A DNA stretch of 64,000 nucleotides from Clostridia bacterium (GTDB lineage Bacteria; Bacillota; Clostridia; UMGS1883): assembly GCA_017440585.1 (NCBI GenBank), contig JAFSGW010000017.1, forward strand, positions 17,401 to 81,400. Reading direction: 5' to 3'. A program made the position numbers and the translations under genes. The notes beneath the pieces were generated by a model. It had not been told where the DNA came from, ran no database searches, and was given only the letters and a program-made list of their open reading frames with translations. This document shows, one piece after another, positions 10,332 through 58,334 of the stretch (positions are counted from its first letter, which is position 1; the number at the start of each line of letters is the position of its first letter).

Positions 10332-10368
10332 AAAGCGACATCTTACTGAAAAGATGTCGCTTTTATTT
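10332..10368 (+). terminator. Rho-independent terminator after degV
   Basis: AAGCGACATCTT / AAGATGTCGCTT stem followed by TTTTATTTG. Confidence 0.8.
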
Positions 10369-10369
10369 G

Positions 10370-10398
10370 TTTACACAAAGAGAAATTCCTTCTATAAT
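10370..10398 (+). promoter_or_regulatory. Sigma-A type promoter (TTTACA-17-TATAAT) for the CAZyme island
   Basis: Near-consensus hexamers with 17-nt spacer about 25 nt upstream of ATG 10424. Confidence 0.5.
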
Positions 10399-10423
10399 AG
10401 TATTAAAGAATGGGGGAGTTTTT

Positions 10424-18219: not shown

Positions 18220-18254
18220 CAATATGTGAGGTATAATGTATCTGAGGTGGTTTT

Positions 18255-19043
18255 ATGCTCAGAATTTCAGAGGCTAACATACGTTTTCAGCTTGATAATT
18301 TAAAAATAAAGGTTCTTGGAATAAGCTATGGTGTGTTTTACAAGCCTTTCCCGAAGCACAAACACGGAAACCGTTTTTATGAAGCACATCTTACCTGCGG
18401 AGGAAGCGGTATTCTTATTGCTGACGGAAAGGAGTACCCCTTAAAGGCAGGCACGCTTTATATGACGGGACCTCTGGTTGAGCATGAGCAGATTACAGAT
18501 GTTGAAGACCCCATGGACGAATACTGCATTCAGTTTGAGATTACGGAAAAGCCCGGTGTAAGGCAGGGCAAAACCGCAACCTTCCTGAAGGATACTGTGT
18601 TCTGGATTGGTGAGGATACACAGAATACAAAAAGGCTTTTTGAAATGCTTACCGAGGAGTGCGAAAACAAGAAGATAGGCTACATACAAAGCGTGATAAA
18701 CCTTTCCTGTCAGCTTATGGTGTGCTTTGCACGTAATTATGCAGGCAGTGACCAGGTTGGTGAGTATACGGCAATTACACCCGATGATAAACGTATGATA
18801 ATAACCGATGAAAGCTTTTTGTACAATTACGCCACTATAACACTGCCGCAACTGAGCAGCAGGCTTAACCTGAGCCCCAGGCAGACACAGCGCTTCCTTA
18901 AAAAGGCATACGGTAAGAGCTTTATAGAACTCAGAAGCGAAAGAAGAAAGGAAAAGGCGAAGGAATTTATCAAAAGTGGGAAAAGTGTGATTGAAGCGGC
19001 AACTATGGTCGGGTATACAAATGAAAAAAGCTTAAAGCTTTGA
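18255..19043 (+). CDS. AraC family transcriptional regulator (cupin sensor plus HTH)
   Basis: N-terminal cupin-like region, C-terminal AraC HTH (QTQRFLKKAYGKSFIELRSERRKEKAKEFIKSGKSVIEAATMVGYTNEKS). Confidence 0.75.
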   Translation: MLRISEANIRFQLDNLKIKVLGISYGVFYKPFPKHKHGNRFYEAHLTCGGSGILIADGKEYPLKAGTLYMTGPLVEHEQITDVEDPMDEYCIQFEITEKPGVRQGKTATFLKDTVFWIGEDTQNTKRLFEMLTEECENKKIGYIQSVINLSCQLMVCFARNYAGSDQVGEYTAITPDDKRMIITDESFLYNYATITLPQLSSRLNLSPRQTQRFLKKAYGKSFIELRSERRKEKAKEFIKSGKSVIEAATMVGYTNEKSLKL

Positions 19044-19065
19044 TAGCAAAAATGTCTATTGACTA

Positions 19066-19113
19066 ACACCCCATACTATGATAGAATTACTTATCATGGT
19101 GTGGGGTTGTTTT
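19066..19113 (+). terminator. Imperfect hairpin plus T-run after araC; the stem contains the GGGG Shine-Dalgarno of the next gene
   Basis: ACCCCATACTATGATAG...TTATCATGGTGTGGGGT stem about 16 bp with wobbles, followed by TGTTTTT and ATG 19115. Confidence 0.5.
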
Positions 19114-19114
19114 T

Positions 19115-19564
19115 ATGAAGAAAACTGAAAAATTTGATACAGTAATGCCGCTTATTAAAGAGCGGTTTGAAAAGGGAGAAAGCTTCGTATTTAAGCCCAA
19201 TGGAGTAAGCATGTTGCCATTTATAAAAGGTGGAGAAACATCGGTTGAAATTGAAAAATACGAAGGCGGAGCCGGGATGTTTGACATTGTGTTTTATGTG
19301 CGTGAGGATGGAAAACATGTAATGCACAGAATTGTAAAAATGTACAAAATTGCAAAAATGTACACAAATTCCTTCGGAGTGTGCGGTGATAACCAGTGGT
19401 GGATTGAAGAGGTTAAGGAAGAACAGATTTTTGCCATTGCAAGAAAGGTCTCGGGAAGAAGGCTTCCCGGCAGTTGGTTATACCTTCACACCTTGCCCTT
19501 AAGGCGGTTTGTAATTCATGTTATACAGTATTTAAAAAAGCATATGAGAGGAGAAAAGAAATGA
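19115..19564 (+). CDS. Standalone S24-like (LexA C-terminal-type Ser/Lys) peptidase domain protein
   Basis: GVSMLP (Ser motif), GGETSVEIEK, DIVFYVREDGKHVMHRIVKM (Lys motif); no HTH and no TM; stop overlaps the GH43 start (ATGA). Confidence 0.5.
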   Translation: MKKTEKFDTVMPLIKERFEKGESFVFKPNGVSMLPFIKGGETSVEIEKYEGGAGMFDIVFYVREDGKHVMHRIVKMYKIAKMYTNSFGVCGDNQWWIEEVKEEQIFAIARKVSGRRLPGSWLYLHTLPLRRFVIHVIQYLKKHMRGEKK

Positions 19565-21228
19565 AAAGAGTTTTAGCTTTTGTTATGGCATTTATGATGC
19601 TTTTTGCAATAAGTGTAAGTGCCAACAACCCCATCGTTAAAGAGGACGGTAACGGTAACCGTATTTATGCAGGTGACCCTGCGGCAATTGTTGTTGATGA
19701 TACTGTGTACCTTTTCTGCGGACACGACACATCTACAACAAATTCTTACTACATGCCCGAGTGGCTTTGCTATTCCTCAAAGGACATGATTAACTGGAAG
19801 TATGAAGGCGTGCCCATGAGAGCAAGTGACTTTTCCTGGGGCAGTGCTGCTGATGCCTGGGCAGGTGAGGTTGAATATTATAAGGGCAAGTATTATTTCT
19901 TTATGTGCAAAAACTCCACAGGTATTTCTGTAGGCGTGAGCGACAATATAACCGGGCCTTATAAGGATCACCTGAACGGCGTGAAGCTTGTTCAGCCCGG
20001 CTGGACACGTGGTAAGGTGGGTTGGGACGACATTGACCCTACCGTATGGATTGAGAACGATGAAAAGGGCGTTGAGCACCGCTATATAGCATGGGGCAAC
20101 TCAAACCTTTATATCGCTGAGCTTACTGAGGACATGAAGAGCCTTGTTGACCTTAACGGCGATGGTGCGGTTAACGGTGGCGATATTACTGAAATACATA
20201 TTCAGGACATGCCCAATACAACAGCCTTTACAGAGGCTCCCTGGTTTTATAAAAGAGGGGATTTGTACTATATTTTCTTTGCTAACAGCTGGCACGAAGA
20301 GCTTTCCTATGCCACAAGCAAAAGTGTAACTGGTCCCTATACATACGGCGGAAAGATTATGGAGGCAGGTGCATCCAGTAACACAAACCATCCTTCCGTA
20401 ATTGATTTTAAGGGCAAGACATATATTTTCTATCACACAGGTGCAATGGAAAACGGCAGTGGCTACAGAAGAAGTATTTGCGTTGAAGAGCTTAAGTTCA
20501 ATGATGACGGTTCGATAGACCTCTTCTACGAGAGCAGTGTTGGTCTTGACGGAACAAAGGTTTTTATTTCACCCGTGAGCGACCCTTCAAAGAAAATTTA
20601 TCACGGCTATTTTTCAAACACAATCGAGCCTACTGCATACCCTGCAGGAAGTCTTGTTTTCTGTGATGACTTTACTGTAAATAAAGCTGACTTTGAATGG
20701 GAAATTATTCCCGGCAGAGGAAATGAGGAATATGTTTCCATTCAGGCGGTAAACAAGATGGGCTATTTTATCACAAACTATAATTCCCACGTTAAGGTTC
20801 TGCACGATAACGATGCAACAAGAGAGACTGCACAGAGCATGACCTTTATTGAACGTGATGGCTTGTGCGGTGAAGGTGTGAGCTATGAGAGCATGACGGA
20901 AAAGGGCATGTTTCTTACGGTTGTGGGCAACAGAGTGCAGCTCACCTCAGGTCACGATAAGGAAGCTTCAAGCTTTATTATAACAGAGGTAAATAACCCC
21001 GATAAGCTTACAGTAAGTGCAGACGGGGACGGTATACACCTTAAGGGCACATATACCGGTGATAAGAGAAACGTGCTTTTGTATGTTAAAAATGAAGAAG
21101 GCACAATTGTTGATTTTAAGATTGTAAGAATAAATGAGTCGAGAATGCTTGACTACACCTTCGAGCCTGAAAAGGGCGGAGTATATACTGTTGTATTCGG
21201 CACTTTCAGTGAAAATGTTGAGTTTTAA
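19561..21228 (+). CDS. Secreted GH43 family glycoside hydrolase (arabinofuranosidase/xylosidase type) with C-terminal AbfB/CBM42-like arabinose-binding domain
   Basis: Signal peptide MKRVLAFVMAFMMLFAISVSA; GH43 signatures (IYAGDPAAIVVDDTVYLFCGHD, EAPWFYKRGDLYYIFFA); C-terminal region with beta-trefoil-like repeats (YFITNYNSHVKVL, GMFLTVVGNRVQL). Confidence 0.8.
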   Translation: MKRVLAFVMAFMMLFAISVSANNPIVKEDGNGNRIYAGDPAAIVVDDTVYLFCGHDTSTTNSYYMPEWLCYSSKDMINWKYEGVPMRASDFSWGSAADAWAGEVEYYKGKYYFFMCKNSTGISVGVSDNITGPYKDHLNGVKLVQPGWTRGKVGWDDIDPTVWIENDEKGVEHRYIAWGNSNLYIAELTEDMKSLVDLNGDGAVNGGDITEIHIQDMPNTTAFTEAPWFYKRGDLYYIFFANSWHEELSYATSKSVTGPYTYGGKIMEAGASSNTNHPSVIDFKGKTYIFYHTGAMENGSGYRRSICVEELKFNDDGSIDLFYESSVGLDGTKVFISPVSDPSKKIYHGYFSNTIEPTAYPAGSLVFCDDFTVNKADFEWEIIPGRGNEEYVSIQAVNKMGYFITNYNSHVKVLHDNDATRETAQSMTFIERDGLCGEGVSYESMTEKGMFLTVVGNRVQLTSGHDKEASSFIITEVNNPDKLTVSADGDGIHLKGTYTGDKRNVLLYVKNEEGTIVDFKIVRINESRMLDYTFEPEKGGVYTVVFGTFSENVEF

Positions 21229-21240
21229 GGAGGGGATAAC

Positions 21241-23229
21241 ATGAAAAAATATATTGGTTTAATTTTAGCTTTAGTATGTGTTTTGTGCTTATCTCTTCAT
21301 GCGATAGCAGCAGAAACACTTTACTACACCTTTGACGGCAGTGACAGCCTTACATCTGTTACAAACACCCTTAAAGCAGGTGCAAATGCGGCAATCGGAG
21401 ACGGAGTTCTTAAGCTTAACGGAACTTACGGCTTAAAGCTCGGCTCAGTGGGAAGCAGCTTTTCTGTTTCTGCAATGGTGAAAATAGATTCAAACGGCGG
21501 AACGGACACTATTTTCTTCAAGGATATGGACAATAAGGGCGATAAATGGACAGGCGTTTTGTCCAATGCTAAGAAACCCTCCTTCTGGACACATGGCACA
21601 AGCCACAGATGGGAAACCGTTGCCTCGGGAACAGAAAATTTAGGCGAATGGAGCCATATTGCATATGTTGAAAATAATAGCACGGGCTCACTTTATGTGA
21701 ATGGTGAGCTTGTTGGAAGCGGAAGCGTTGAAAGTGGTGCAGGCACCCTTTACCTTGGTGCAACCTACTGGAGTGCCGATGCACCCTCGGGTATGGTTGA
21801 CAATGTAAAGCTTTTTAATAACGCCCTTACCGCAGGCGAGGTTATGTCGGAATACGAAAGCAATATTGACTTTGAAAGTGCTTTAAAGCTTCCCCGGGAT
21901 GTTATTTCCGATATTGAGCTTGTAAAGAAGGTCGGAACAAAGGTTGTTACCTGGGCAAGCAGTAACGAAGCTGTCATTGATAGAGAAGGTAAGGTAACAC
22001 GTGCCGATGAGGACGTTACTGTTACACTTACTGCCACAGTTGACGGTGAGGTTGTGGGTGAGTTTGAAGTAACGGTGCTTAAAAAGCCCGGTAAGGCAAA
22101 TGATGATGTAATTCTTTCCTATGTGTTTGACTTGGAAAATGATGGCGATATTATCCACGATATGTCCGGTAACGGAAACCACGGTGCGGCATATAACGGT
22201 CTTGAAATTACAAAGGATGGTGCACACTTTGACGGTAGCGACGACTATGTGAAATTAGTTGACGGTATTCTTTACGGGCATGATGAAATTACAATATGCA
22301 CAACCTTTAAGCCCACCGCAGCACAGAAGCATGTGTTCTTATACGGCTTTGGCAACGGTACAGAAACAGGCTATATGTTCCTTAACCCCTCAAGACCTAC
22401 AACAAACACCCTTCGTTTTGCAATGACGAAAACAAATGCAGGGAACGAAAGCTCACTTGTTTCTCTGCCCGGCATCCGTATTAACGAAGAGGTGAACGTG
22501 ACTGTAGTCATAGTGGACAAATATGCCTCTATGTATGTTGATGGTGAATTGGTTATGGATGGCGACCTGGGTATGACAGTAAGTGCCCTTGGCGAAACTA
22601 AGGAAAACTACATTGGTAAATCTCTTTATGAGGCTGATCCTTATTTTGCAGGTTACATGAAGGAGTTTACTGTGTATAACTATGCTATGCGCGAAAGCAG
22701 GATAAAGGAGCTTTACGGAAAGAGCGTTGAATATGCTGAAAGTGATGAAGTGAAAGAGTATATACAGAGCGTTTCCTTTGAGAACGGAATAGAGGTTACG
22801 GTTGATACTTTCAACCGCAATGATGTAAAAATTGGTGTTGTTGTGCTTGATGAGAATTATGAAGTTATTGAATTCAGCGTAAATGATGCCGAAGACGAAA
22901 TTGCAGTTACAAAGGATGGTACAGTTTGTGTATTTGCCTTTGATGAAGAAACAAACACACCCGGAAGCATATTTGTGAAGGGTGAGGGTGAAGGCTTTAC
23001 CTACGAGCATACCCCCGGAGTGGTTAAAATTACAGCAGAAAGCACCCTTAAAGGCGGTATTGCCATAGTTGCAGGCTATGACACCACAGGAGCATTAACA
23101 GGTGTTGTGTGCAAGGCTGTTGACCTTACAGAAGGTGTTGGTGAAGCATTTGAAGGCGATTTTGAAAACGCCGTTATGTTCAAAATGTTCTACTGGGGCA
23201 ACCTTGTTGCCATGATTCCTATGGAATAA
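21241..23229 (+). CDS. Secreted protein with two concanavalin A-like/LamG (Laminin_G_3) lectin domains
   Basis: Signal peptide MKKYIGLILALVCVLCLSLHAIA; LamG-type motifs LYLGATYWSADAPSGMVDNVKLFNNALTAGEV and NYIGKSLYEADPYFAGYMKEFTVYNYAMRESRIKELYG. Confidence 0.7.
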   Translation: MKKYIGLILALVCVLCLSLHAIAAETLYYTFDGSDSLTSVTNTLKAGANAAIGDGVLKLNGTYGLKLGSVGSSFSVSAMVKIDSNGGTDTIFFKDMDNKGDKWTGVLSNAKKPSFWTHGTSHRWETVASGTENLGEWSHIAYVENNSTGSLYVNGELVGSGSVESGAGTLYLGATYWSADAPSGMVDNVKLFNNALTAGEVMSEYESNIDFESALKLPRDVISDIELVKKVGTKVVTWASSNEAVIDREGKVTRADEDVTVTLTATVDGEVVGEFEVTVLKKPGKANDDVILSYVFDLENDGDIIHDMSGNGNHGAAYNGLEITKDGAHFDGSDDYVKLVDGILYGHDEITICTTFKPTAAQKHVFLYGFGNGTETGYMFLNPSRPTTNTLRFAMTKTNAGNESSLVSLPGIRINEEVNVTVVIVDKYASMYVDGELVMDGDLGMTVSALGETKENYIGKSLYEADPYFAGYMKEFTVYNYAMRESRIKELYGKSVEYAESDEVKEYIQSVSFENGIEVTVDTFNRNDVKIGVVVLDENYEVIEFSVNDAEDEIAVTKDGTVCVFAFDEETNTPGSIFVKGEGEGFTYEHTPGVVKITAESTLKGGIAIVAGYDTTGALTGVVCKAVDLTEGVGEAFEGDFENAVMFKMFYWGNLVAMIPME

Positions 23230-25264: not shown

Positions 25265-25300
25265 TAAACCTATTGACAAAGTAGGTTTTATACAATATAA
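25265..25300 (+). promoter_or_regulatory. cysK promoter (TTGACA-17-TATAAT) embedded in inverted repeat AAACCTA-N9-TAGGTTT
   Basis: Consensus hexamers; 7-bp perfect arms flanking the -35. Confidence 0.45.
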
Positions 25301-25338
25301 TTCATTTAAAGAGAATATATTGTAAGGAGAAATGGGTT

Positions 25339-27920: not shown

Positions 27921-28838
27921 ATGGACACATTATCTATCCGTGACGAAATCCTCCGTTTGAAAAAAGAAAAAGATGTATGCATTCTGGCACACAGCTATCA
28001 GGCTAAGGCAATTACAGAAATTGCCGACTTTACGGGCGACAGCTATCAGCTCAGCGTAATGGCATCGAAAACAGATGCAAAAACCGTTATTATGTGCGGT
28101 GTACGCTTCATGGCTGAAACCGTGAAAATTCTTTCACCTGAGAAAACAGTTATTCTTTCAAGCCCCATTGCAGGCTGTCCTATGGCAGAGCAGATGAGCA
28201 AGGAATACATTGAAAACATAAAGAAAAGCTATCCTGATTATGCTGTTGTTGCTTATATCAACACAACGGCAGAGCTGAAAACCATATGCGACGTTTGTGT
28301 TACAAGTGCCTCTGCGGTGAAGATTGTAAAGAATATTCCCAACGATAAAATTCTTTTCATTCCCGACTGTAACTTAGGTAGCTACGTTGCAAAGAATGTT
28401 CCCGAAAAAACATTCAAGCTTCTTCATGGCGGTTGCCCCATCCACGGTAAGATAACGGGAGAAGAGGCAAGGGTGGCAAAGAGGCTTCATCCTGATGCAA
28501 AATTCCTTGTGCATCCCGAATGTGTTCCTCAGGTTGTTGCTCAGGCTGATGTTGTAGGCTCTACAACAGTTATTATCGACTATGCAAAGCAGAGCGAGGA
28601 AAAGGAATTTATTATCGGAACAGAAATTGCAATTTCTGAATATCTGCAGTTTGAATGCCCCGAAAAGAAGTTCTATCCCTTATCCTCAAAGCTTATATGC
28701 CCTGATATGAAGGCAACAACACTGGTTGATGTGTATAATATTTTGAAGGGTGACGGCGGTGAAGTTATTGAGCTTCCCGAGGAAACCATAGTCAAGGCTC
28801 GTGCATGTATTGACAAGATGATTGAGCTTGGTGGCTGA
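27921..28838 (+). CDS. nadA: Quinolinate synthase A
   Basis: AHSYQAKAITEIADFTGDSYQLS, three conserved Cys regions for the 4Fe-4S cluster; 305 aa. Confidence 0.85.
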   Translation: MDTLSIRDEILRLKKEKDVCILAHSYQAKAITEIADFTGDSYQLSVMASKTDAKTVIMCGVRFMAETVKILSPEKTVILSSPIAGCPMAEQMSKEYIENIKKSYPDYAVVAYINTTAELKTICDVCVTSASAVKIVKNIPNDKILFIPDCNLGSYVAKNVPEKTFKLLHGGCPIHGKITGEEARVAKRLHPDAKFLVHPECVPQVVAQADVVGSTTVIIDYAKQSEEKEFIIGTEIAISEYLQFECPEKKFYPLSSKLICPDMKATTLVDVYNILKGDGGEVIELPEETIVKARACIDKMIELGG

Positions 28839-28851
28839 TACATAAAGGCTT

Positions 28852-28882
28852 AAAAGACGATGCACGTGCATCGTCTTTTTGC
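28852..28882 (+). terminator. Rho-independent terminator
   Basis: AAAAGACGATGCAC / GTGCATCGTCTTTT stem plus T-run. Confidence 0.85.
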
Positions 28883-28908
28883 TTTAAAGATGAGAAGGAG
28901 GCATACGT

Positions 28909-31464
28909 ATGATTAAGTTTAGACTGCTTGAGGGACGTGTGCAAAATGGCGGTGTTACCTTTGGTGTGCCGCATTTTAAAGGCGAAATAAGTGACAGTAA
29001 TAATCTTATTGTTGAGCAGGGCGAGAGTGTGCTTTTATCGCAAAATAAACCCATTGCCTTCTGGGAGGACGGGTCTGTCAAGTGGAGTGCTGTTTCGGTA
29101 GTGCCCGGTGATGGCGAAGTAACCGTAAGGCAGGGATTTGGGATAAAGGCTGATAATATGCCCGTTACAGAAACCGTTGAAAGCATCACCGTTGACAACG
29201 GATGCTTTAAAGCTGTTTTTTATAAAAAAGGTAATGTATTAATGGAAACCGACAGCTTTTCTGTAGGGTTAAAGGCTGTAAAGACACTTGTTACAAAGGA
29301 AAAGGATGTAACAATAAAAAAAGAGATAACCTATCACGGTGAAATAACTGAGTGTATGACAGAAGAGACGGGAAGTGTAAAAACGGTTATATGTTTAAAG
29401 GGTGCGCATAAGGCTGAGGACAGTTTTCTTCCGTTTATTCTCAGAGTTACGTTGTATAAAAATTCACCCAAGGCTGATATTGTACACACCTTTATTTATG
29501 ATGGCGATGCAGTAAAGGATTTTATAGGCGGTATAGGTGTATGTGTAAAACACAAGATGAAGGGAAACTGTGCAAACCGCCGTGTGAAAATAGCAGGTGA
29601 CAGTGGTATTTTCCATGAACCCCTTAAGATGCTCACCACCTGGAGACCAAGAATTAAAAGAGAATATTATATGGCTCAGCTACGGGGCGAAAGCATTGAT
29701 GTGTTGAATATTTATGATGAACGTGGGCAAAAGGTGAGCGATGAGGTGATTGACAATGTAACCGTGTGGGACTGCTATAAGTATACTCAGGTTACGCCTG
29801 ACAGCTTTAAAATTACAAAGAGAACTGCTCATGAGGAATGTGCATATATAAATGCAGGCTTTGGCAAAAGGGCAAAGGGGCTTTTATATGCTGGAGATGA
29901 AAAAGGTGGTATTGCAGTTGCTATGCGCCATTTTTACGAAAAAGCACCCTCTGCCATATGGGCTGAAAAGCTTTCGGAGGACGAAGCTGAAATAACTGCA
30001 TGGATTCATCCTGCAGATAGTGAAGCACTTGACCTGCGACACTATGACACAGTTTCTCACGACCAGACCTATTACGAGGGCTTTCCGTATCTTGATTCTG
30101 ACCCTTACGGCATTGCATGCACCAATGAATTGTCTGTTTTTGTCTATGGCGAGACACCGGAGGATGATAAGCTTTTATCTGATGCGGAAAGTGTGGCAAG
30201 ACCTGCAGTGTATGTGACGGATAGTGAAACCTATAAAAACACAAATGTTCTGGGCACGTTTTCATTGCCCGATAAATCCACTCCCTTTAAGGCATGGCTT
30301 GAGGAGGAGCTTGACAAGGCGGTTGACTTTTATATTGAAGAGGTTGAAAAAAGGCACTGGTATGGGCTTTTTGACTACGGCGATGTTATGCATACCTACG
30401 ATGCCATCCGCCACTCATGGAAGTATGACATGGGCGGATACGCCTGGCAGAATACAGAGCTTGTGCCTACCTTGTGGCTGTGGTATATGTTCTTAAGAAG
30501 TGGCAGAGGCGATGTTTTTAGCCTTGCAGAGGCTATGAGCCGTCATACGGCAGATGTTGACGTTTATCACATGGGTGCTAAAAAAGGCCTTGGAAGCAGG
30601 CATAATGTGCTTCACTGGGGTGATTCCTGCAAGGAAGCCAGAATTGCTATGGCGGGGCACCACAGACCGCTTTATTATATAATGGGCGGTGATGCACGTA
30701 TTGGAGACGTGTTTGACGATGTTCGTGACGGTGATATGGCAACCATTTTAACTGACCCCTTGGGTGCATTTTACAAAAAGGATACAATGAAACTTCCGAC
30801 CCATGCAAGGCTCGGTCCTGACTGGTCAAGCTACTGCTCCAACTGGTATACAGAATGGGAAAGAAAGGGTAATACTCAATACCGTGATAAAATAGAAACA
30901 GGTGTTGCAGATATACGAAGTGCACCACTTGGCATGATATCGGGTCCTGATTTTGAATACGATCCCGAAACGGGACACCTGGGCTATTTTGGCGAGAACG
31001 CCACGGGAGGGATGCACCTTGCAATTTGTATGGGTGGACCACAGACCTGGATGGAGCTTGCAGATAAATTAAGTGATGATAAATTGAAAAATATGCTCGC
31101 AGAATTCGGCAGATTTTACTTTCTTTCTTCCGAGGAAAAGCAGAAGGAGGGAAAAGGGCTTAAAAGGGCAGGAGCGTATTCCTTCCCATATATGGCAGCA
31201 GCAATGGGAGCATATGCGGCAAAAGAATATAAGGACGAAAACCTTGCATATAAAGTATGGAAAGAGCTTATAGGTGCCCTTCCTCAGGGAGGCTTTGACA
31301 AAAAGACGGTGAAGTATTATAATAATGATAAGCTTGAGGAAATAGTTCATATAAGCACTAACTTTGCATCACAGTGGTGTCTTAATACTATTGTGTGCCT
31401 TGAATTAATAAAAGAATATATTCCCAAGAGCTTGAAAGAACATAATAATGAAAAGGAGATATAA
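28909..31464 (+). CDS. Large (851 aa) cytoplasmic hypothetical protein, family not recognised
   Basis: GGAGG RBS; no signal peptide; conserved-looking blocks HWYGLFDYGDVMHTYD, GGYAWQNTELVPTLWLWYMFLRSG, HNVLHWGDSCKEARIAMAGHHRP. Confidence 0.5.
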   Translation: MIKFRLLEGRVQNGGVTFGVPHFKGEISDSNNLIVEQGESVLLSQNKPIAFWEDGSVKWSAVSVVPGDGEVTVRQGFGIKADNMPVTETVESITVDNGCFKAVFYKKGNVLMETDSFSVGLKAVKTLVTKEKDVTIKKEITYHGEITECMTEETGSVKTVICLKGAHKAEDSFLPFILRVTLYKNSPKADIVHTFIYDGDAVKDFIGGIGVCVKHKMKGNCANRRVKIAGDSGIFHEPLKMLTTWRPRIKREYYMAQLRGESIDVLNIYDERGQKVSDEVIDNVTVWDCYKYTQVTPDSFKITKRTAHEECAYINAGFGKRAKGLLYAGDEKGGIAVAMRHFYEKAPSAIWAEKLSEDEAEITAWIHPADSEALDLRHYDTVSHDQTYYEGFPYLDSDPYGIACTNELSVFVYGETPEDDKLLSDAESVARPAVYVTDSETYKNTNVLGTFSLPDKSTPFKAWLEEELDKAVDFYIEEVEKRHWYGLFDYGDVMHTYDAIRHSWKYDMGGYAWQNTELVPTLWLWYMFLRSGRGDVFSLAEAMSRHTADVDVYHMGAKKGLGSRHNVLHWGDSCKEARIAMAGHHRPLYYIMGGDARIGDVFDDVRDGDMATILTDPLGAFYKKDTMKLPTHARLGPDWSSYCSNWYTEWERKGNTQYRDKIETGVADIRSAPLGMISGPDFEYDPETGHLGYFGENATGGMHLAICMGGPQTWMELADKLSDDKLKNMLAEFGRFYFLSSEEKQKEGKGLKRAGAYSFPYMAAAMGAYAAKEYKDENLAYKVWKELIGALPQGGFDKKTVKYYNNDKLEEIVHISTNFASQWCLNTIVCLELIKEYIPKSLKEHNNEKEI

Positions 31465-31466
31465 AT

Positions 31467-32267
31467 ATGGGATTTTTAACAGGAAAAACAGCGATTATTA
31501 CAGGTGCAGGCTTTGCAGCACTTTCTGACGGAAGATGCGGCTCCATAGGCTACGGCATTGCAACAGCTTATGCAAAGGAAGGCTGCAATCTGGTTATCAC
31601 GGGTCGCAATGTAGCAAAGCTTGAAAAAGCAAAGGAAGAGCTTGAGAGCCTTTACGGCATTAAGGTACTTGCACTTCCTGCAGATATTTCAGAAGGCAGT
31701 GATAACGAGGCAATTGCAAAGAGTGTTGCGGAAAAAGCAATTGAAGCCTTCGGCAGAATTGACGTGCTTATTAACAATGCTCAGGCATCTGCATCGGGCG
31801 TTACAATTCAGGACCATACAACAGAACAGTTTAACCTTGCTATGTACTCGGGTCTTTATGCAACCTTCTACTACATGAAGGCATGCTATCCTTACCTTAA
31901 GGAAACAAAGGGCAGCGTTATAAACTTTGCTTCAGGTGCAGGCTTGTTCGGCAATTACGGACAGTGCTCCTACGCAGCTGCAAAGGAAGCTATCCGCGGC
32001 CTCAGTCGTGTTGCGGCTACAGAATGGGCAAAGGATGGCATTAACACAAATGTTGTGTGCCCCTTAGCATGGACAAGTCAGCTCGAAAACTTTGAAAAGG
32101 CTTATCCCGAAGCCTTTAAGGCAAATGTGAAGATGCCTCCTGCAGGTCACTATGGTGATGCAGAGCTTGAAATAGGCAGAGTATGTGTTCAGCTTGCTTC
32201 TCCCGACTTTAAGTATATGAATGGTGAAACCCTCACTTTAGAAGGCGGAATGGGCTTAAGACCGTAA
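31467..32267 (+). CDS. SDR family oxidoreductase with interrupted glycine-rich motif (FabI/FabL-like N-terminus)
   Basis: GKTAIITGAGFAALSDGRCGSIGYGIATAYA, NNAQ, catalytic YAAAK; 3 nt after the upstream stop. Confidence 0.75.
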   Translation: MGFLTGKTAIITGAGFAALSDGRCGSIGYGIATAYAKEGCNLVITGRNVAKLEKAKEELESLYGIKVLALPADISEGSDNEAIAKSVAEKAIEAFGRIDVLINNAQASASGVTIQDHTTEQFNLAMYSGLYATFYYMKACYPYLKETKGSVINFASGAGLFGNYGQCSYAAAKEAIRGLSRVAATEWAKDGINTNVVCPLAWTSQLENFEKAYPEAFKANVKMPPAGHYGDAELEIGRVCVQLASPDFKYMNGETLTLEGGMGLRP

Positions 32268-32273
32268 ACGAAG

Positions 32274-33626
32274 GTGAAAATAATGGAACAGACAAAAAAC
32301 GATTTTTCCGTTGGTTCTGTTAAAAGACTTATAATTTCTCAGGCTGTACCCCTGACACTTGCTCAGGCGGTACAGCTTCTGTACAATGTTGTTGACAGAA
32401 TTTACATAGGGCATCTGGAAAACATAGGTGACATTGCTTTAACCGGGCTTGGCATAACCTTTCCCGTAATAGTTATTGTAGCGGCGTTTACGAGCCTTTT
32501 CGGCACGGGCGGAACAACTGTTTTCTCAATTGCACGGGGAAAGGGCGAAACGGATGAGGCGGAGAAGGTTATAGGCAACGTGTTTATGCTGCTTGTCCTC
32601 TTTTCGGTGGGGCTTTTTGCACTGTGCTATTTATTTAAAAGACCGATACTTTTTTTATTCGGTGCAAGCGAGGAGTCCTTTGTTCATGCCAATGCATACC
32701 TTCAGATTTACCTTTACGGCACACTCTTTTCCATGCTTTCCACGGGCATGAACGGCTTTATAAACGCTCAGGGCTTCCCGAAGGTGGGCATGCTGTCGGT
32801 TATTATTGGTGCAGCGGTAAATATTGTGCTTGACCCTATATTCATTTTTGGCTTAGATATGGGCGTAAAGGGTGCTGCCATGGCAACTGTTATAAGCCAG
32901 GCTATATCAGCTTTATGGGTTGTGGGCTTTCTTTTAAGCAAAAAGGCGATTTTGAGGCTTTCCTTTAATAAACTCAGAATTAGTCAAAACAGACTCTGTA
33001 AAATTGTTAGCCTTGGGCTCCCGGGCTTTGTTATGCAGGGCACAAACAGCCTTGTGCAGATTGTGTGCAACCGTCAGCTTCAGCAGTATGGCGGTGATTT
33101 ATATGTTGGTATAATGACAGTTTTAAACTCCGTAAGGGAAATGGTGTCACTGCCTGTTATGGGCATAAGCCACGGTGCACAGCCCATTTTAGGCTTCAAT
33201 TACGGTGCAAAACAGAACAAACGTGTAAAAGAAGGCATACGCTTCACTGCAACACTTGGTATGGTGTACACGCTTTTTGCATGGCTTCTTGTGATGCTTA
33301 TCCCGAAGGAGCTTATGAGCATTTTCTCCGAGGATGCCGAGACTATTGCAGTCGGTGCGCAGATGCTCAATATTTACTTTTTCGGCTTTGTGTTTATGGC
33401 ATTTCAGTTTGCAGGGCAAACGGCGTTTCAATCCCTTGGCAAGGCGAAGCAGGCAATTTTCTTTTCACTTTTCAGAAAGGCCATTATTGTTGTGCCACTT
33501 ACAATTATTCTGCCCTTATGCGGCTTGGGCGTTGAAGGTGTGTTCTGGGCAGAGCCAATTTCAAATGCGGTAGGCGGCTTGGCGGCATTTGGTGCAATGT
33601 GGGCTATGATATACAGAAAGTTATAG
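32274..33626 (+). CDS. MATE family efflux transporter
   Basis: 12-TM protein with MATE N- and C-lobe signatures (AQAVQLLYNVVDRIYIGHL). Confidence 0.8.
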   Translation: MKIMEQTKNDFSVGSVKRLIISQAVPLTLAQAVQLLYNVVDRIYIGHLENIGDIALTGLGITFPVIVIVAAFTSLFGTGGTTVFSIARGKGETDEAEKVIGNVFMLLVLFSVGLFALCYLFKRPILFLFGASEESFVHANAYLQIYLYGTLFSMLSTGMNGFINAQGFPKVGMLSVIIGAAVNIVLDPIFIFGLDMGVKGAAMATVISQAISALWVVGFLLSKKAILRLSFNKLRISQNRLCKIVSLGLPGFVMQGTNSLVQIVCNRQLQQYGGDLYVGIMTVLNSVREMVSLPVMGISHGAQPILGFNYGAKQNKRVKEGIRFTATLGMVYTLFAWLLVMLIPKELMSIFSEDAETIAVGAQMLNIYFFGFVFMAFQFAGQTAFQSLGKAKQAIFFSLFRKAIIVVPLTIILPLCGLGVEGVFWAEPISNAVGGLAAFGAMWAMIYRKL

Positions 33627-33629
33627 AAT

Positions 33630-33660
33630 TAAAGGCTTCCTTTATGAGGAAGCCTTTTGT
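33630..33660. terminator. Bidirectional hairpin between convergent MATE and deacetylase genes
   Basis: AAGGCTTCC / GGAAGCCTT stem with 7-nt loop, T-run downstream; includes the stop codon of the minus-strand gene. Confidence 0.6.
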
Positions 33661-34400
33661 TGTCTGCCTGTGTGGTCGATGGTGTAGTTTTCTTTATAGA
33701 TTAAGTCGCCGACCTTACAGAAGGTATAACCTTCGTTTTTTAATGCTTGCAAAATACCGGGGAGGGCAGAAGCGGTTTGCTTTGTGCCGTTATGGAAAAG
33801 GAGGATTGAGCCCGGTTGTAGTTTTGCAAAGATACGTTCCTTCATTTGCTCTTCTGTTAAATTCTTCCAGTCCAAACTGTCGATATTCCACTGAATGCAG
33901 TATCTGCCTGTTTCCTTGCAGGCTAAAATGGAGTTATTTGTATAGTCACCTGAGGGGGCACGCATTAAATTGGGGCGGATGCCTAAAACCGATTGAATAG
34001 CTGAGTCGCACTTATCCATGTCGGCTATTATTTCATCCTTGGAAAGAGTGGAGTAGAGGGTGTGGTTATAGCTGTGGGAGGCTATTTCATGCCCTGCATT
34101 ATAGAGCTTTTTCAAGCTTTCGGGAAAACGCTCTGCCCAGTCGCCCGTTACAAAGAAGGTTGAGGGGCAATTGTGCTCATTTAAAACAGAAATAATTGTG
34201 TCGATATCGTCGTCATTCCAGGCTGAGTCAAAAGTGACGGCGATTTTCTTTTCTTCCGTTTCAACAGAATAGATGGGAAGCTCCTTTGTTTTTGTTGATG
34301 TTTCCATGGTTTCGATAAAGCTCGGCAGGGAGAAAGCTGCAATGAGAAGTACCGTGGCACAAAGTATAAGTTTTTTTGCACTTAAAACAAATATTTTCAC
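33642..34400 (-). CDS. Polysaccharide deacetylase (NodB homology), PdaA-like peptidoglycan MurNAc deacetylase
   Basis: Signal/anchor then TFDSAWND, HSYNH, MRAPSGDY, LLFHNG motifs; GTG start sharing 1 nt with the cwlD stop. Confidence 0.75.
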   Translation of the reverse strand: MKIFVLSAKKLILCATVLLIAAFSLPSFIETMETSTKTKELPIYSVETEEKKIAVTFDSAWNDDDIDTIISVLNEHNCPSTFFVTGDWAERFPESLKKLYNAGHEIASHSYNHTLYSTLSKDEIIADMDKCDSAIQSVLGIRPNLMRAPSGDYTNNSILACKETGRYCIQWNIDSLDWKNLTEEQMKERIFAKLQPGSILLFHNGTKQTASALPGILQALKNEGYTFCKVGDLIYKENYTIDHTGRQQKASS

Positions 34401-39322: not shown

Positions 39323-40597
39323 ATGGACAGTAGTCTATGGTTTGTTCTGGTAATACTCATTATACTTTCCGGATATTTTTCCGCAAGTGAAACAGCGTTT
39401 TCTGCGTTTAACCGTGCGAGAATGAAAAACCTGGCGCAAAACGGCAACAAAAAGGCAACACTTGTGCTGAAAATGAGTGAGGATTTTGACAAGGTTCTTT
39501 CTACGCTTCTCATTGGTAACAACATTGTTAATATTACAGCAACAACAATTGCAACTATTTTGTTTGCACAGATGCTTTTTATTCCTCAGGAAATAAGAGC
39601 AACAGCTTCAACTGTTTTCATGACACTTGCCGTACTGATTTTTGGTGAAATTACACCTAAGTCTATGGCAAAGCAGGCTCCCGAAGCATTTGCAATGTTT
39701 TCGGCTCCGTTTCTTAATGCATTGTCAATTGTTCTTACGCCATTGAGCATTATTTTCATGGCATGGCAGAAAAAAATTGTAAACAAGGTGTTTGACTTTG
39801 GTGCAGACGATAAAATTACTGAAGATGAGCTTCTTACAATTGTTGACGAGGCAGCAGAGGATGGCGGCATAAACAGCCAGGAAAGCGAGCTTATAAAGAA
39901 CGCCATTGAGTTTAACGATATAGAGGTTAACGAGGTACTTACGCCCCGTGTTGACGTTGTTGCAATTGACATTGAATGGGACAAGGAGAAGATTGCCGAA
40001 ACCTTTGAAGAGTCGGGATTTTCCAGACTGCCTGTTTATAAAGATACCATTGATAACATCATAGGCGTGCTTACACACCGTGACTTTGTAGCTGAAGAAA
40101 AGAGTGACATTTTCAGGATTGAAAGTGCCATCAAGCCCGTTAAGTTTATTTTCTCAACTATGAAAATATCAAAGCTTCTGAGGTTTTTGCAGGAAAGCAA
40201 GTCACATATAGTAGTTGTAAGTGATGAATACGGCGGTACAGAGGGTATTGTAACCTTAGAAGACATTATAGAAGCACTTGTCGGCGAAATCTGGGACGAA
40301 TACGACAGTGTTGAGCAGAGCGATTTTGAAAAGATTTCCGATAATGCATACAAGGTGAATGCTTCGGCTACATTAGAGGATATGTTTGAATTTTTCTCCC
40401 TTCGTTTTGATGAGGAAGAAATGGACGACATAAATACTGTAGGCGGATTTGTGGCTTCCCAGCTTGAAAAAATACCCGATGTGGGCGATACCTTTGAATA
40501 TGAAAACCTGAAGTTTACTGTTACGAGTACAGACTCGGCAAGAGTGCTGAGTGTGCTTGTAAAGGTGGGCGAAAAGGAAAATAAAGAAGAAAACTAG
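39323..40597 (+). CDS. CNNM/CorC-type transporter (DUF21 membrane domain plus CBS pair plus CorC_HlyC)
   Basis: LSGYFSASETAFSA, CBS domains, C-terminal transporter-associated domain; an alternative TTG start at 39311 lies too close to the RBS. Confidence 0.8.
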   Translation: MDSSLWFVLVILIILSGYFSASETAFSAFNRARMKNLAQNGNKKATLVLKMSEDFDKVLSTLLIGNNIVNITATTIATILFAQMLFIPQEIRATASTVFMTLAVLIFGEITPKSMAKQAPEAFAMFSAPFLNALSIVLTPLSIIFMAWQKKIVNKVFDFGADDKITEDELLTIVDEAAEDGGINSQESELIKNAIEFNDIEVNEVLTPRVDVVAIDIEWDKEKIAETFEESGFSRLPVYKDTIDNIIGVLTHRDFVAEEKSDIFRIESAIKPVKFIFSTMKISKLLRFLQESKSHIVVVSDEYGGTEGIVTLEDIIEALVGEIWDEYDSVEQSDFEKISDNAYKVNASATLEDMFEFFSLRFDEEEMDDINTVGGFVASQLEKIPDVGDTFEYENLKFTVTSTDSARVLSVLVKVGEKENKEEN

Positions 40598-40606
40598 TAT
40601 AACTGA

Positions 40607-40632
40607 CCCTGAAATATGGGTCATTTTTTCTT
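40607..40632 (+). terminator. Rho-independent terminator
   Basis: TGACCC / GGGTCA stem followed by TTTTTTC. Confidence 0.7.
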
Positions 40633-40754
40633 AAAAAAATTTGTATAACTCAAAAAAAAGTGTTGTAAAATTAAAATGCAGATGCTATAATAATTGATGG
40701 TATTTTGACAGAGTATGTTTCTGCCAAAAATTTAACATGTTAGAGGGGATTACA

Positions 40755-41954
40755 ATGGCAAACAAAGAAAGAAGAGTCGGAACGGTATCAAGAGGTATTC
40801 GCTGTCCTATCATACGCGAAGGTGATGATCTTGCTGCAATCGTAGCAACAAGCGTCCTTGAAGCGGCTGAATTTGAGGGCTTTGAAATCAGAGATCGTGA
40901 CGTTATTTCCATAACAGAATCTATCGTAGCAAGAGCACAGGGAAACTATGCTTCTGTTGACGATATTGCCGCAGATGTTAAGGCTAAGCTCGGCGGGGAC
41001 ACAGTAGGTGTTATTTTCCCCATACTTTCACGTAACCGCTTTGCTATTTGCTTAAAGGGTATTGCAAAGGCTGTAAAGAAGGTTGTTCTTATGCTCAGCT
41101 ATCCCTCTGACGAGGTTGGTAATGAGCTCATAAGCATTGATAAAATTGACGAAGCAGGCATCAACCCCTATTCCGATGTGCTTTCCCTTGAAAAGTATCG
41201 TGAGCTTTTCGGCGAAAACAAGCACGAATTTACAGGTGTTGATTATGTTCAGTACTATGGCGATGTTATAAAAGAATGCGGTGCAGAGGTTGAAATTGTT
41301 TTTGCAAATCAGGCAAAGGCTATTCTCGATTACACCGACTGTGTTATCAACTGCGATATTCACACACGTGCTCGCACAAAGCGTATTCTTCTTGCTGCAG
41401 GTGCAAAGGTTGTATGCTCTCTTGACGATATTCTTAACGCTCCTGTGAATGGTTCCGGCTGTAATGAAAAATATGGCCTTCTCGGCTCCAATAAGTCCAC
41501 AGAGGACAAGATTAAGCTTTTCCCCAGAGAATGTAAAGACCTTGTGCTTGATATCCAGAAGAGAGTTATGGATGCAACAGGCAAGCATGTTGAGGTTATG
41601 GTATACGGTGACGGTGCATTCAAGGATCCTCAGGGTAAAATCTGGGAGCTTGCTGACCCGGTTGTTTCTCCTGCTTATACAGACGGTCTTGTTGGCACAC
41701 CCAATGAACTTAAGCTTAAGTACCTTGCAGATAACGACTTTGCAGAGCTTTCCGGTGAAGCTTTGAAGGAAGCTATCAGCAAGAGCATTAAGGAGAAGGA
41801 AGGTAACCTTGTAGGCAACATGGCATCTCAGGGTACAACACCCCGTCAGCTTACAGACCTTATCGGTTCTCTTTGTGACCTTACCTCCGGTTCCGGTGAT
41901 AAGGGTACACCCGTTGTACTTGTACAGGGCTATTTCGACAACTATACAAACTAA
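40755..41954 (+). CDS. CofE-like (F420-0:gamma-glutamyl ligase fold) family protein, 399 aa
   Basis: GIRCPIIREGDDLAAIVATSVLEAAEF...RDRDVISITESIVARAQGN matches the CofE-like N-terminal pattern; start at internal ATG with RBS AGAGGGGA. Confidence 0.45.
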   Translation: MANKERRVGTVSRGIRCPIIREGDDLAAIVATSVLEAAEFEGFEIRDRDVISITESIVARAQGNYASVDDIAADVKAKLGGDTVGVIFPILSRNRFAICLKGIAKAVKKVVLMLSYPSDEVGNELISIDKIDEAGINPYSDVLSLEKYRELFGENKHEFTGVDYVQYYGDVIKECGAEVEIVFANQAKAILDYTDCVINCDIHTRARTKRILLAAGAKVVCSLDDILNAPVNGSGCNEKYGLLGSNKSTEDKIKLFPRECKDLVLDIQKRVMDATGKHVEVMVYGDGAFKDPQGKIWELADPVVSPAYTDGLVGTPNELKLKYLADNDFAELSGEALKEAISKSIKEKEGNLVGNMASQGTTPRQLTDLIGSLCDLTSGSGDKGTPVVLVQGYFDNYTN

Positions 41955-41960
41955 TCATAT

Positions 41961-41988
41961 AAAAAGCGACTTTCGGGTCGCTTTTTTG
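41961..41988 (+). terminator. Rho-independent terminator
   Basis: AAGCGAC / GTCGCTT stem plus T-run. Confidence 0.75.
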
Positions 41989-42080
41989 TATGATTGCACC
42001 AAAAAAATATTGTTGCTTTTTTAAAGGCTGTATATTATAATACTTAAGATAGGTTATACAAATTGAAAGGACTGATTTAA

Positions 42081-43274
42081 ATGTATTTATCAAAGAAATT
42101 TTCTTCAATCAGCCCCTCTGCAACACTTGCTATTGATTCTAAGTTCAAGGCAATGAAAGCGGAAGGTATAGATGTGGTTGGTTTCGGTGCAGGTGAACCT
42201 GACTTTCCGACACCCCGTCACATAAAGGATGCCGCTATAGCTGCAATTGAGAATAATATGACAACATATACACCTGCTTCGGGAACACTTGCCGTAAAGG
42301 AAGCAGTATGCTGTAAGTTTAAAAATGAAAACAACCTTGAATATAAGGCTGAAAATATTGTTGTATCAAACGGTGCAAAGCACTCTCTTAACAATGCTCT
42401 CGGTGCAATTTTAAACCCCGGTGACGAGGTTATAATTCCTGCACCCTGCTGGGTAAGCTATCCCGAGATGGTGCTTCTTGCAGACGGTGTGCCCGTTATT
42501 GTTAATTCTACAGAGGAAGAAGGCTTCCTTCCCACAATTGAAAAAATTAAGGCTGCTGTTACAGAAAAGACAAGAGCTATTATTATTAACAACCCTTCAA
42601 ACCCCACCGGTATGTGCTATTCTGAAGAGTTGCTCCGCGAAATTGCAGATTTGTGTGTGAAGAACAACATATACATTATTGCAGACGAAATTTACGAAAG
42701 CCTTGTTTACGGTGGCAGAAAGAATTTCTCCATCGCTACAATAAGCGATGAGGTTAAGGACATTACAATCGTTGTAAACGGTGTTTCCAAAACTTATGCA
42801 ATGACCGGCTGGAGAATTGGTTACACAGCTTCCAATGCACGCCTTGCGAAGATTATGGGCAATGTGCAGTCTCATGCAACAAGCAACCCCAACTCTATCG
42901 CTCAGCATGCAACTGTTGCAGCTCTTACAGGGGATCAGGAGCCCGTTTTGGAAATGAAGAAGGCTTTTGAAGAGAGAAGAAACCACATGGTTGAGAGAAT
43001 GAACTCCATCGACGGTGTAAGCTGTATTATGCCTGATGGTGCATTCTACATCATGATGAATATTTCTGCACTTTTGGGCAAGGAAATTGACGGCACGGTT
43101 ATCACAGGCAGTGATGTGTTTGCAGAGAAGTTCCTTGAGGTCGAAAAGGTTGCAGTTGTACCCGGCAAGAGCTTTGGTACAGATATTCACGTAAGATGGA
43201 GCTATGCAACAAGCATGGAAAACATCGATAAGGGTCTTGACAGACTTGAAGCATTTATTGCAAAGCTTAAATAA
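42081..43274 (+). CDS. Aspartate/aromatic aminotransferase (class I PLP aminotransferase)
   Basis: GEPDFPTP, NPSNPTG, SKTYAMTGWRIGY PLP-lysine region. Confidence 0.85.
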   Translation: MYLSKKFSSISPSATLAIDSKFKAMKAEGIDVVGFGAGEPDFPTPRHIKDAAIAAIENNMTTYTPASGTLAVKEAVCCKFKNENNLEYKAENIVVSNGAKHSLNNALGAILNPGDEVIIPAPCWVSYPEMVLLADGVPVIVNSTEEEGFLPTIEKIKAAVTEKTRAIIINNPSNPTGMCYSEELLREIADLCVKNNIYIIADEIYESLVYGGRKNFSIATISDEVKDITIVVNGVSKTYAMTGWRIGYTASNARLAKIMGNVQSHATSNPNSIAQHATVAALTGDQEPVLEMKKAFEERRNHMVERMNSIDGVSCIMPDGAFYIMMNISALLGKEIDGTVITGSDVFAEKFLEVEKVAVVPGKSFGTDIHVRWSYATSMENIDKGLDRLEAFIAKLK

Positions 43275-57876: not shown

Positions 57877-57972
57877 GGACACGGAGACGTGTCCTTAAAT
57901 TTTTACTTGACAAGCCTACAAATGTAGTCTATAATGAGGTTGACTACAATTGTAGGTGAAAGGAGAATTAGT

Positions 57973-58332: not shown

Positions 58333-58334
58333 CT

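Follow-up and report, generated by a model that had tools for sequence, protein, structure and literature searches.

A PL26-family (PcRGLX-like) exo-rhamnogalacturonan lyase homologue without a signal peptide in a Clostridia bacterium

Gene and family assignment

The window, which is the whole 64-kb stretch of DNA analysed here, contains a long open reading frame whose product was originally described as an orphan with no recognisable family. The question is to which family this protein belongs and on what substrate it may act. The ORF was read in the window as originally called, with 851 aa, an ATG start and a good RBS (Table 1), and its neighbours are those that were claimed, nadA on one side (the product matches PF02445, E 8.6e-115) and an SDR and MATE pair on the other. 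The terminator-like hairpin that closes the nadA unit (dG -22 kcal/mol, z -5.7 against shuffles) stands upstream of the RBS, so the gene probably starts its own transcript. The GC content of the ORF (0.40-0.47) is similar to that of the surroundings and gave no signature of horizontal transfer. No hydrophobic leader is present at the N-terminus (MIKFRLLEGRVQNGG...), and since the first Pfam domain, PF19501, begins at residue 8, there is no space for a signal peptide, which agreed with the original prediction.

The Pfam domains PF19501, PF21345 and PF21346 were found in this order, full-length, and all above their gathering cut-offs. At least 763 homologues were present in the protein collection, and 1386 representatives of 50%-identity clusters were found at E <= 1e-3; the Firmicutes homologues are named 'exo-rhamnogalacturonan lyase family protein' by NCBI and UniRef. 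The NCBIfam search with the window protein gave no match, but NCBIfam has no model for this PL26 protein, so that this null result does not imply an orphan. On the basis of its sequence, the window protein is a member of the PL26 / PcRGLX family. The orphan claim is contradicted by the three PcRGLX domains, by the match to PDB 5xq3 (E 2.6e-118) and by the number of homologues; the original prediction had itself named a clear profile match to a characterised family as grounds for giving it up, and PcRGLX provides such a match. Its suggestion of an alpha/alpha-toroid protein fared better, as the family is one of three-domain enzymes with an (alpha/alpha) toroid domain, PF21346. The curators of CAZy reported that PL26, with 1657 sequences in their 2023 network analysis, is homogeneous and has no subfamilies, and that it had one characterised member as of 2023, which is fungal and secreted (PMC10461819). 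We found no enzymology for any bacterial PL26 protein.

Table 1. Features of the gene and its surroundings, in positions of the window
Feature	Position	Strand	Remarks
Intrinsic-terminator-like hairpin closing the nadA unit	28852-28880	+	12-bp perfect stem, then T run
RBS AAGGAGG	28895-28901	+	7 nt 5' of ATG; direct sequence reading
PL26-family (PcRGLX-like) exo-rhamnogalacturonan lyase homologue, no signal peptide	28909-31464	+	Pfam, PDB match, homologues, AF2 and Foldseek
PcRGLX_1st, N-terminal RIFT-barrel, PF19501	28930-29115 (residues 8-69)	+	E 1e-12, 48.1 bits against cut-off 22.1
PcRGLX_2nd, central beta-sandwich, PF21345	29164-30180 (residues 86-424)	+	E 4.6e-81; contains Y389-E390
PcRGLX_3rd, C-terminal (alpha/alpha) toroid, PF21346	30202-31422 (residues 432-838)	+	E 1.5e-143, profile positions 1-410/411
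Perfect sigma-70 consensus TTGACA-17-TATAAT	31295-31323	+	Inside PL26 ORF 3' end, ~145 nt upstream of SDR start
SDR oxidoreductase, 266 aa	31467-32267	+	Starts 2 nt after PL26 stop; RBS inside PL26 3' end
MATE-family transporter, 450 aa	32274-33626	+	Followed by terminator-like hairpin 33631-33657

Comparison with PcRGLX and proposed function

PcRGLX, the exo-rhamnogalacturonan lyase of Penicillium chrysogenum 31B (CAZy PL26, EC 4.2.2.24; PDB 5xq3, 5xqg, 5xqj, 5xqo), is structurally and biochemically characterised and has the same complete three-domain architecture as the window protein. Membership of PL26 is judged by significant similarity to this founder across the ~867-aa module, and the phmmer match of query 13-828 to chain 20-891 of 5xq3 showed such similarity, at 32% identity over about 804 aligned columns. 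The window protein is ~50 residues shorter because surface insertions are trimmed. PcRGLX is a secreted fungal enzyme, whereas the window protein, which has no signal peptide, would act in the cytoplasm.

The AF2 model of the window protein (pLDDT 87, pTM 0.90) superposed on 5xq3, 5xqg and 5xqo with TM 0.88-0.90 (PcRGLX 0.89). The Foldseek search with this model, a check proposed in the original prediction, returned PcRGLX entries as all of the top 13 matches (TMq 0.88-0.90), and the next matches had a TM of <= 0.25. The confidence of the model is lowest precisely at the most conserved loops.

Homologue sequences were taken from the loci by BLAST-based extraction (65 sequences). Across 33 bacterial homologues and PcRGLX, 89 columns were invariant and the window protein keeps all of them; nor does it depart from the consensus at any site with >= 90% conservation among 66 members of the family. 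The motifs invariant between the bacteria and PcRGLX include DYGD-MHTYD, GGYAW and RH-V-HW. The three Trp/His/Asp-rich motifs that had first drawn notice were found at residues 482-498, 521-532 and 568-587, and most of their residues do not vary among the bacterial homologues and PcRGLX. The toroid domain is the location of the motifs at residues 482-498, 507-517, 521-532 and 564-587.

The structure 5xqo, whose title is 'complexed with tetrameric substrate', differs from the wild type solely by Tyr437->Phe (TYEDW to TFEDW, chain 5xq3_B against 5xqo_A). Y389-E390 of the query (nt 30073-30078) aligns with Y437-E438 of PcRGLX in 5xq3 chain numbering, and both residues are invariant in the 33 bacterial sequences plus PcRGLX (n=34). 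From the Phe mutation and the title of 5xqo, we infer that Tyr437, and Y389 in the window protein, may be catalytic. Kunishige et al. reportedly defined the catalytic and substrate-binding residues of PcRGLX by mutagenesis in 2018. The exo-rhamnogalacturonan lyase activity (EC 4.2.2.24), which releases deltaGalA-Rha from the reducing end, has been described for PcRGLX only (PMC10461819).

Our results suggest, with a probability of roughly 0.75, that the window protein is an intracellular PL26 exo-rhamnogalacturonan lyase homologue with rhamnogalacturonan I (RG-I) oligosaccharides as its substrate. By analogy with PcRGLX, it would bind RG-I backbone oligosaccharides at the reducing end. Since the protein is predicted to be intracellular, like its counterpart in Bacillus described below, the substrates would be oligosaccharides produced extracellularly and subsequently taken up. 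The product would be processed by an unsaturated rhamnogalacturonyl hydrolase of GH105 and by the rhamnose and keto-deoxy-uronate pathways, and because none of these genes lies in the window, they would be encoded elsewhere in the genome.

Genomic context of the gene and its relatives

For the YetA of the Bacillus subtilis group, the 857-aa product of the gene in the B. halotolerans yetA slot served as a stand-in, with no claim of strict orthology. It shows 41% identity over 844 residues (649 bits) to the query, has a similar length and the same three domains, is also without a signal peptide, and its activity is predicted. This identity and the PL26 domains bear out the YetA-like or PL26-like relationship that was originally suggested. 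The gene order of the Bacillus cluster is yesS-rhgT-yesUVWXYZ-yetA-lplABCD (PMC2885750), and in B. halotolerans the PL26 gene lies between yesZ (GH42) and lplABCD, after yesW/yesX (PL11). The Bacillus gene is embedded in a rhamnogalacturonan cluster of PL11 lyases, GH42, esterases and an LplABC ABC importer, whereas the window gene is found by itself, with nadA on one side and SDR/MATE on the other.

The PL26 proteins encoded in RG-I clusters of Lachnospiraceae (for example Lacrimispora L005, Acetatifactor L046, and loci L030, L041 and L059) have the same architecture at 42-46% identity and are flanked by an ABC solute-binding protein (SBP) and permeases, PL11, GH105, DUF1961 and an AraC regulator. 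The locus of the Lacrimispora protein (45% identity), for example, consists of AraC, two ABC permeases, a 520-aa SBP, PL26, PL11 and GH88/105. Most homologues at <= 48% identity are likewise flanked by RG-I genes (ABC importer, PL11, GH105, DUF1961), but none of the Lachnospiraceae-type flanking genes was found at the window gene or at its 25 closest clade members.

The window's clade (>= 51% identity) belongs to gut Clostridia, including Candidatus Ornithomonoglobus and MAGs from the ruminant and rabbit gut; it is widespread in gut Clostridia MAGs and its protein length is uniform. In the NJ tree, this clade is nested inside RG-linked Firmicutes sequences, with the Lachnospiraceae PL26 as the sister diversity from which it emerges, and its basal members (L024 and L027) still have an adjacent DUF1961. 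RG genes within 10 kb were found in 0/26 loci of the clade. Near the ORF, the 64-kb window has no gene for GH105, PL11, GH28, rhamnose catabolism or oligosaccharide ABC transport, and no co-location of the yes/yet/lpl type (PL11, GH105, DUF1961/YesU, LplABC-type importer, AraC/YesS regulator). The clade nests among RG-linked relatives but has lost the RG-I context. Because all 26 loci are without RG genes, the support of gene context for an RG-I role is borrowed from relatives at <= 48% identity. ORF clustering of 27 loci revealed no conserved neighbours in the clade beyond short-range synteny, in which malic enzyme, PtsI, an SLH protein, FGGY kinase, Band_7 and TPM were observed.

The loss of all RG-I cluster context raises the alternative that the stand-alone Clostridia clade keeps the fold and chemistry but cleaves a different Rha-uronate or uronate oligosaccharide instead of the RG-I backbone, such as the Rha-alpha-1,4-GlcA that caps arabinogalactan proteins, or fragments derived from RG-II. 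The window encodes enzymes for the side chains of pectin or for arabinogalactan (GH43+AbfB, GH95, GH141-like, GH51), the loci of relatives carry GH127, GH53 and GH2, and only one PL26 enzyme has been characterised (PMC10461819). Against this stand the nesting of the clade within RG-linked sequences, the absence of any deviation at >= 90% conserved positions, and a CAZy network analysis without functional subgroups (PMC10461819). Moreover, only two fixed differences separate the clade from the other bacterial sequences (E467 versus Q, G593 versus a gap), both at positions that are not shared with PcRGLX, and with so few differences a signal of neofunctionalisation was rejected. We consider another substrate unlikely. 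We are more doubtful still of a wider proposal, that the clade left the RG-I operon and took on a new role as a stand-alone cytoplasmic lyase, recurrently beside MATE, which would act on another uronate oligosaccharide or serve a novel pathway of uptake or detoxification; if true, this would be the first functional split inside PL26.

The CAZyme island of the window (10367-23229: GH141-like, GH95, GH43, Laminin_G_3) lies upstream of the gene. The link between them that had been suggested was not upheld: six housekeeping genes and a terminator stand between them, the arrangement is unconserved in relatives, and the clade has no carbohydrate gene among its conserved neighbours.

The downstream genes were also considered as possible partners. 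In loci L007, L045 and L015 a MATE gene is immediately next to the PL26 homologue, in L024 one lies nearby, and five of the only six MATE genes in 1.12 Mb of loci belong to the window's clade; this adjacency is weak but recurrent. In L007, the PL26, SDR and MATE genes are neighbours as in the window, but the PL26 gene is on the opposite side of the SDR-MATE pair. Between the two loci the SDR is 95% and NadA 94% identical, PL26 only 70%.

KduD, DhuD and DEH reductases reduce keto-uronates in other lyase pathways, and the three genes might by comparison form one module, in which the lyase yields an unsaturated uronate, the SDR reduces this product or a keto-uronate derivative, and MATE moves a substrate or a toxic intermediate. 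The three genes are on the same strand, the SDR starts directly after the PL26 stop, and there is no terminator before 33631. On the other hand, the perfect sigma-70 consensus in the PL26 3' end is likely to be a separate promoter for SDR-MATE; only three such perfect matches occur in the 64 kb, where 0 are expected by chance, and the other two are intergenic and upstream of genes. The SDR scored 101.5 bits against KduD TIGR01832 (cut-off 338.85), far under the equivalog cut-off, and its best NCBIfam matches (BudC, FabG, glucose 1-dehydrogenase) were all below their cut-offs; it appears generic, and its assignment as KduD or DhuD is unsupported. We know of no MATE transporter that carries oligosaccharides. 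The SDR is adjacent to PL26 in no locus besides the window and L007, and SDR and NadA are conserved with the backbone. Because PL26 has diverged and lies on the other side in L007, its adjacency to the pair looks like drift in a variable spot. A functional module is improbable, and SDR and MATE probably form a unit apart from PL26, under a promoter of their own, and are not its obligate partners.

The gene stands by itself amid housekeeping genes, and between the window and L007 it diverges faster (70% identity) than its neighbours (81-95%), as might a catalytically dead or non-enzymatic relic that decays after loss of the RG-I operon. This is very improbable for an intact, full-length ORF with a strong RBS that keeps all 89 invariant residues, in a clade that is widespread and uniform in length. 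A glycoside hydrolase, also raised in the original prediction, is scarcely credible: combinations of toroid and beta-sandwich are known from both GH and PL families, but above TM 0.25 the only structural relatives are PcRGLX entries, and the Tyr that is altered in the substrate-bound entry is conserved.

The reading as an intracellular PL26 homologue acting on RG-I oligosaccharides is preferred, and the result is chiefly a correction of annotation, in that what had been labelled an orphan is an ordinary member of CAZy PL26 and Pfam PcRGLX. As the sole characterised enzyme of this large family is fungal, the gut-Clostridia protein is a reasonable first bacterial candidate, and its characterisation could clarify how pectin-degrading gut Clostridia handle imported RG-I oligosaccharides.

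Family and fold of the 851-residue protein

The original prediction described the product of this ORF as a cytoplasmic orphan with no recognisable family, possibly YetA/PL26-like. The orphan label fails, because all three Pfam domains of PcRGLX, the CAZy PL26 exo-rhamnogalacturonan lyase of Penicillium chrysogenum, match the protein in order, each from end to end. PcRGLX was also the sole family matched among solved-structure sequences (E 2.6e-118, query residues 13–828). The AlphaFold2 model, whose input alignment held 33 homologues, reached pLDDT 87 and pTM 0.90; the top 13 Foldseek matches in the PDB were all PcRGLX entries (TM 0.88–0.90), and no other structure there exceeded TM 0.25. The pLDDT was below 50 at residues 388–390, 395–399, 507–517 and 564–571 (nt about 30070–30621), and the remainder was confident. 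These stretches coincide exactly with the most conserved loops, presumably of the active site, and a shallow alignment (33 sequences) or conformations that depend on a ligand or metal may explain their low values.

The YetA/PL26 guess, on the other hand, was correct. A Bacillus halotolerans homologue of 857 aa, which shares 41% identity with the window protein across 844 residues, lies between yesZ (GH42) and lplABCD, downstream of yesU, yesV, yesW and yesX. In B. subtilis, with its order 'rhgT yesUVWXYZ yetA lplABCD' (PMC2885750), the corresponding place is taken by yetA. At least 763 homologues were found in one protein collection at E ≤ 1e-10, and in a second, clustered at 50% identity, 1386 representatives matched at E ≤ 1e-3, 253 of them at E ≤ 1e-30. 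No NCBIfam model matched the window protein; its Firmicutes homologues bear the name 'exo-rhamnogalacturonan lyase family protein' in NCBI and UniRef. We assign the protein to the PL26 (PcRGLX/YetA-like) family with a probability of about 0.97. What is new here is a further member of an already known family; the gene is real and was rightly described under a wrong headline.

The ORF, its ribosome-binding site and the absence of a signal peptide were borne out by the sequence, as were the neighbours, NadA on the 5' side and an SDR followed by a MATE transporter on the 3' side. The nadA unit is closed by a 12-bp hairpin with a T tail just 5' of the AAGGAGG box (dG -22 kcal/mol, z -5.7 vs shuffles). 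A cytoplasmic location is expected, since the translation opens with no hydrophobic leader and its first Pfam match runs from residue 8.

Features of the PL26 gene, its product and its surroundings
Feature	Position	Strand	Remarks
CAZyme island	10367-23229		GH141-like, GH95, AraC regulator, GH43+AbfB, Laminin_G_3
Ribosome-binding box AAGGAGG	28895-28901		7 nt before ATG of PL26 ORF
PL26-family ORF	28909-31464	+	851 codons, ATG start
PF19501, RIFT barrel	residues 8-69		Pfam E 1e-12
PF21345, beta-sandwich	residues 86-424		Pfam E 4.6e-81
PF21346, alpha/alpha toroid	residues 432-838		Pfam E 1.5e-143
Perfect sigma-70 consensus TTGACA-17-TATAAT	31295-31323	+	inside PL26 ORF 3' end, ~145 nt before SDR start
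SDR	31467-32267		starts 2 nt after PL26 stop
MATE transporter	32274-33626		after SDR
GH51 arabinofuranosidase with CBM4_9	54042-56336		apart from island

Conserved residues and predicted reaction

A catalytic position was sought in the differences among the PcRGLX PDB chains. The chain of 5xqo, an entry entitled 'complexed with tetrameric substrate', departs from the wild type only in Tyr437 to Phe (TYEDW to TFEDW), which we infer to be an inactivating swap of a catalytic residue. PcRGLX residues 20–890 were rebuilt from the chain comparison and aligned with 33 bacterial homologues. Y389-E390 of the window protein stood opposite Y437-E438, a pair invariant in all these sequences; the HMMER pairwise alignment instead sets Y388 opposite Tyr437, a Tyr occupying the position in both. 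From fungal PcRGLX to gut Clostridia, 89 columns of this set are invariant, and they take in most His, Asp, Trp and Arg residues of the three motifs quoted in the original prediction, which we found in the translation at residues 482–498, 521–532 and 568–587. The window protein showed no deviation at positions at least 90% conserved in a 66-sequence set, and its clade (homologues at least 51% identical to it) has only two residues fixed differently from the other bacterial sequences.

The characterised PL26 activity is the β-elimination of α-L-Rha-(1→4)-α-D-GalA in exo mode. According to the CAZy curators, PL26 comprises 1657 sequences, of which one is a characterised enzyme, and is not divided into subfamilies (PMC10461819). 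This supports functional uniformity. The homology, fold, conserved residues and absent secretion signal observed here, together with the rhamnogalacturonan (RG) context of relatives, point to an intracellular exo-rhamnogalacturonan lyase as the likely specific activity. From these we infer the reaction, substrate and downstream steps: the protein would perform the same cleavage in the cytoplasm on imported oligosaccharides, and its product would pass to a GH105 hydrolase whose gene would lie in another part of the genome.

The SDR and MATE neighbours

A separate promoter for SDR-MATE is predicted, and probable, from the rare perfect sigma-70 consensus embedded in the 3' end of the lyase gene. 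Such sites occur three times in 64 kb vs none expected by chance, and the other two (25273–25301 and 57907–57935) are intergenic, upstream of genes. The lyase, SDR and MATE genes could also be on one transcript, given gaps of 2 and 6 nt and a first terminator at 33631. A dedicated module of the three is argued against by the embedded promoter, by the generic SDR and by the rearrangement at L007, the genome locus closest to the window, which comes from a Clostridia MAG of the roe deer rectum.

Window 27921–34400 was compared with L007 6056–18780. The backbone identity was 94% for NadA, 95% for SDR, 81% for MATE and 83% for PdaB, vs only 70% for the lyase, which follows MATE in L007 and precedes SDR in the window. 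The lyase has been moved or replaced inside a conserved backbone, and the stretch from nadA to pdaB is a variable spot. L007 additionally carries small DUF2752 and TM2 genes and four unknown ORFs.

The SDR scored below the KduD threshold (101 bits vs a cut-off of 339), and no NCBIfam equivalog scored above its cut-off. In the PDB the SDR is closest to FabG-like or hydroxybutyrate dehydrogenases, the top match being 7wbc, an unnamed SDR (187 bits). The Gly-rich dinucleotide-binding loop of the window's SDR has an insertion of ~9 residues (TGAGFAALSDGRCGSIGYGIA). MATE directly abuts the PL26 homologue on the same strand in L007 (8616–9944) and two further loci, L045 (8596–9912) and L015 (12787–14067), and lies close to it in L024 (8037–9191); these MATE proteins are 23–81% identical to that of the window, their loci belong to several subclades of the window's clade, and the 65 loci (1.12 Mb) hold just 6 MATE genes in all. 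The recurrent association is weak and phylogenetically non-independent, and it has no obvious rationale.

Genomic context in the window and in relatives

No RG-I genes were found near the PL26 ORF in the window. Six housekeeping genes separate the CAZyme island from it, and outside the island and GH51 the window is housekeeping. In the island, the GH141-like protein with F5/8 type C (discoidin) domains has 1098 aa and GH95 has 1519 aa. Island and GH51 form a plant-glycan set, which suggests that the organism degrades pectin side chains or arabinogalactan.

The Lacrimispora homologue (45% identity) has an AraC regulator, two ABC permeases and a 520-aa SBP on its 5' side, and a PL11 lyase and GH88/105 on its 3' side. 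A tblastn search of 64 genome loci with these cluster proteins placed RG-cluster genes beside most of the homologues that share at most 48% identity with the window protein, and beside no homologue in the window's clade (26 loci). When neighbouring ORFs were clustered, no partner gene was conserved within this clade. Its members are Clostridia MAGs (roe deer, goat, rabbit and human guts), Candidatus Ornithomonoglobus and Oscillospiraceae MAGs, and a neighbour-joining tree nested them among RG-linked Firmicutes sequences. DUF1961 still adjoins PL26 in two basal members (L024 and L027).

The homologues of L060–L066 (Bacteroidota, Ignavibacteria and KSB1; 36–38% identity) carry N-terminal hydrophobic leaders and most Firmicutes sequences lack them, so exported and cytoplasmic forms of the family split by taxonomy, the former in Gram-negatives. 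L018 and L019 are identical, inverted PL26 copies ~15 kb apart with identical flanks on one 76-kb MAG contig (CAZWMB010000001.1, about 40470–43055 and 57662–60247), probably a palindromic assembly artefact rather than a true duplication.

The residual interest of this gene lies in the bacterial PL26 proteins having no characterised member as of 2023 (PMC10461819), and in the operon context that the window's clade has lost.
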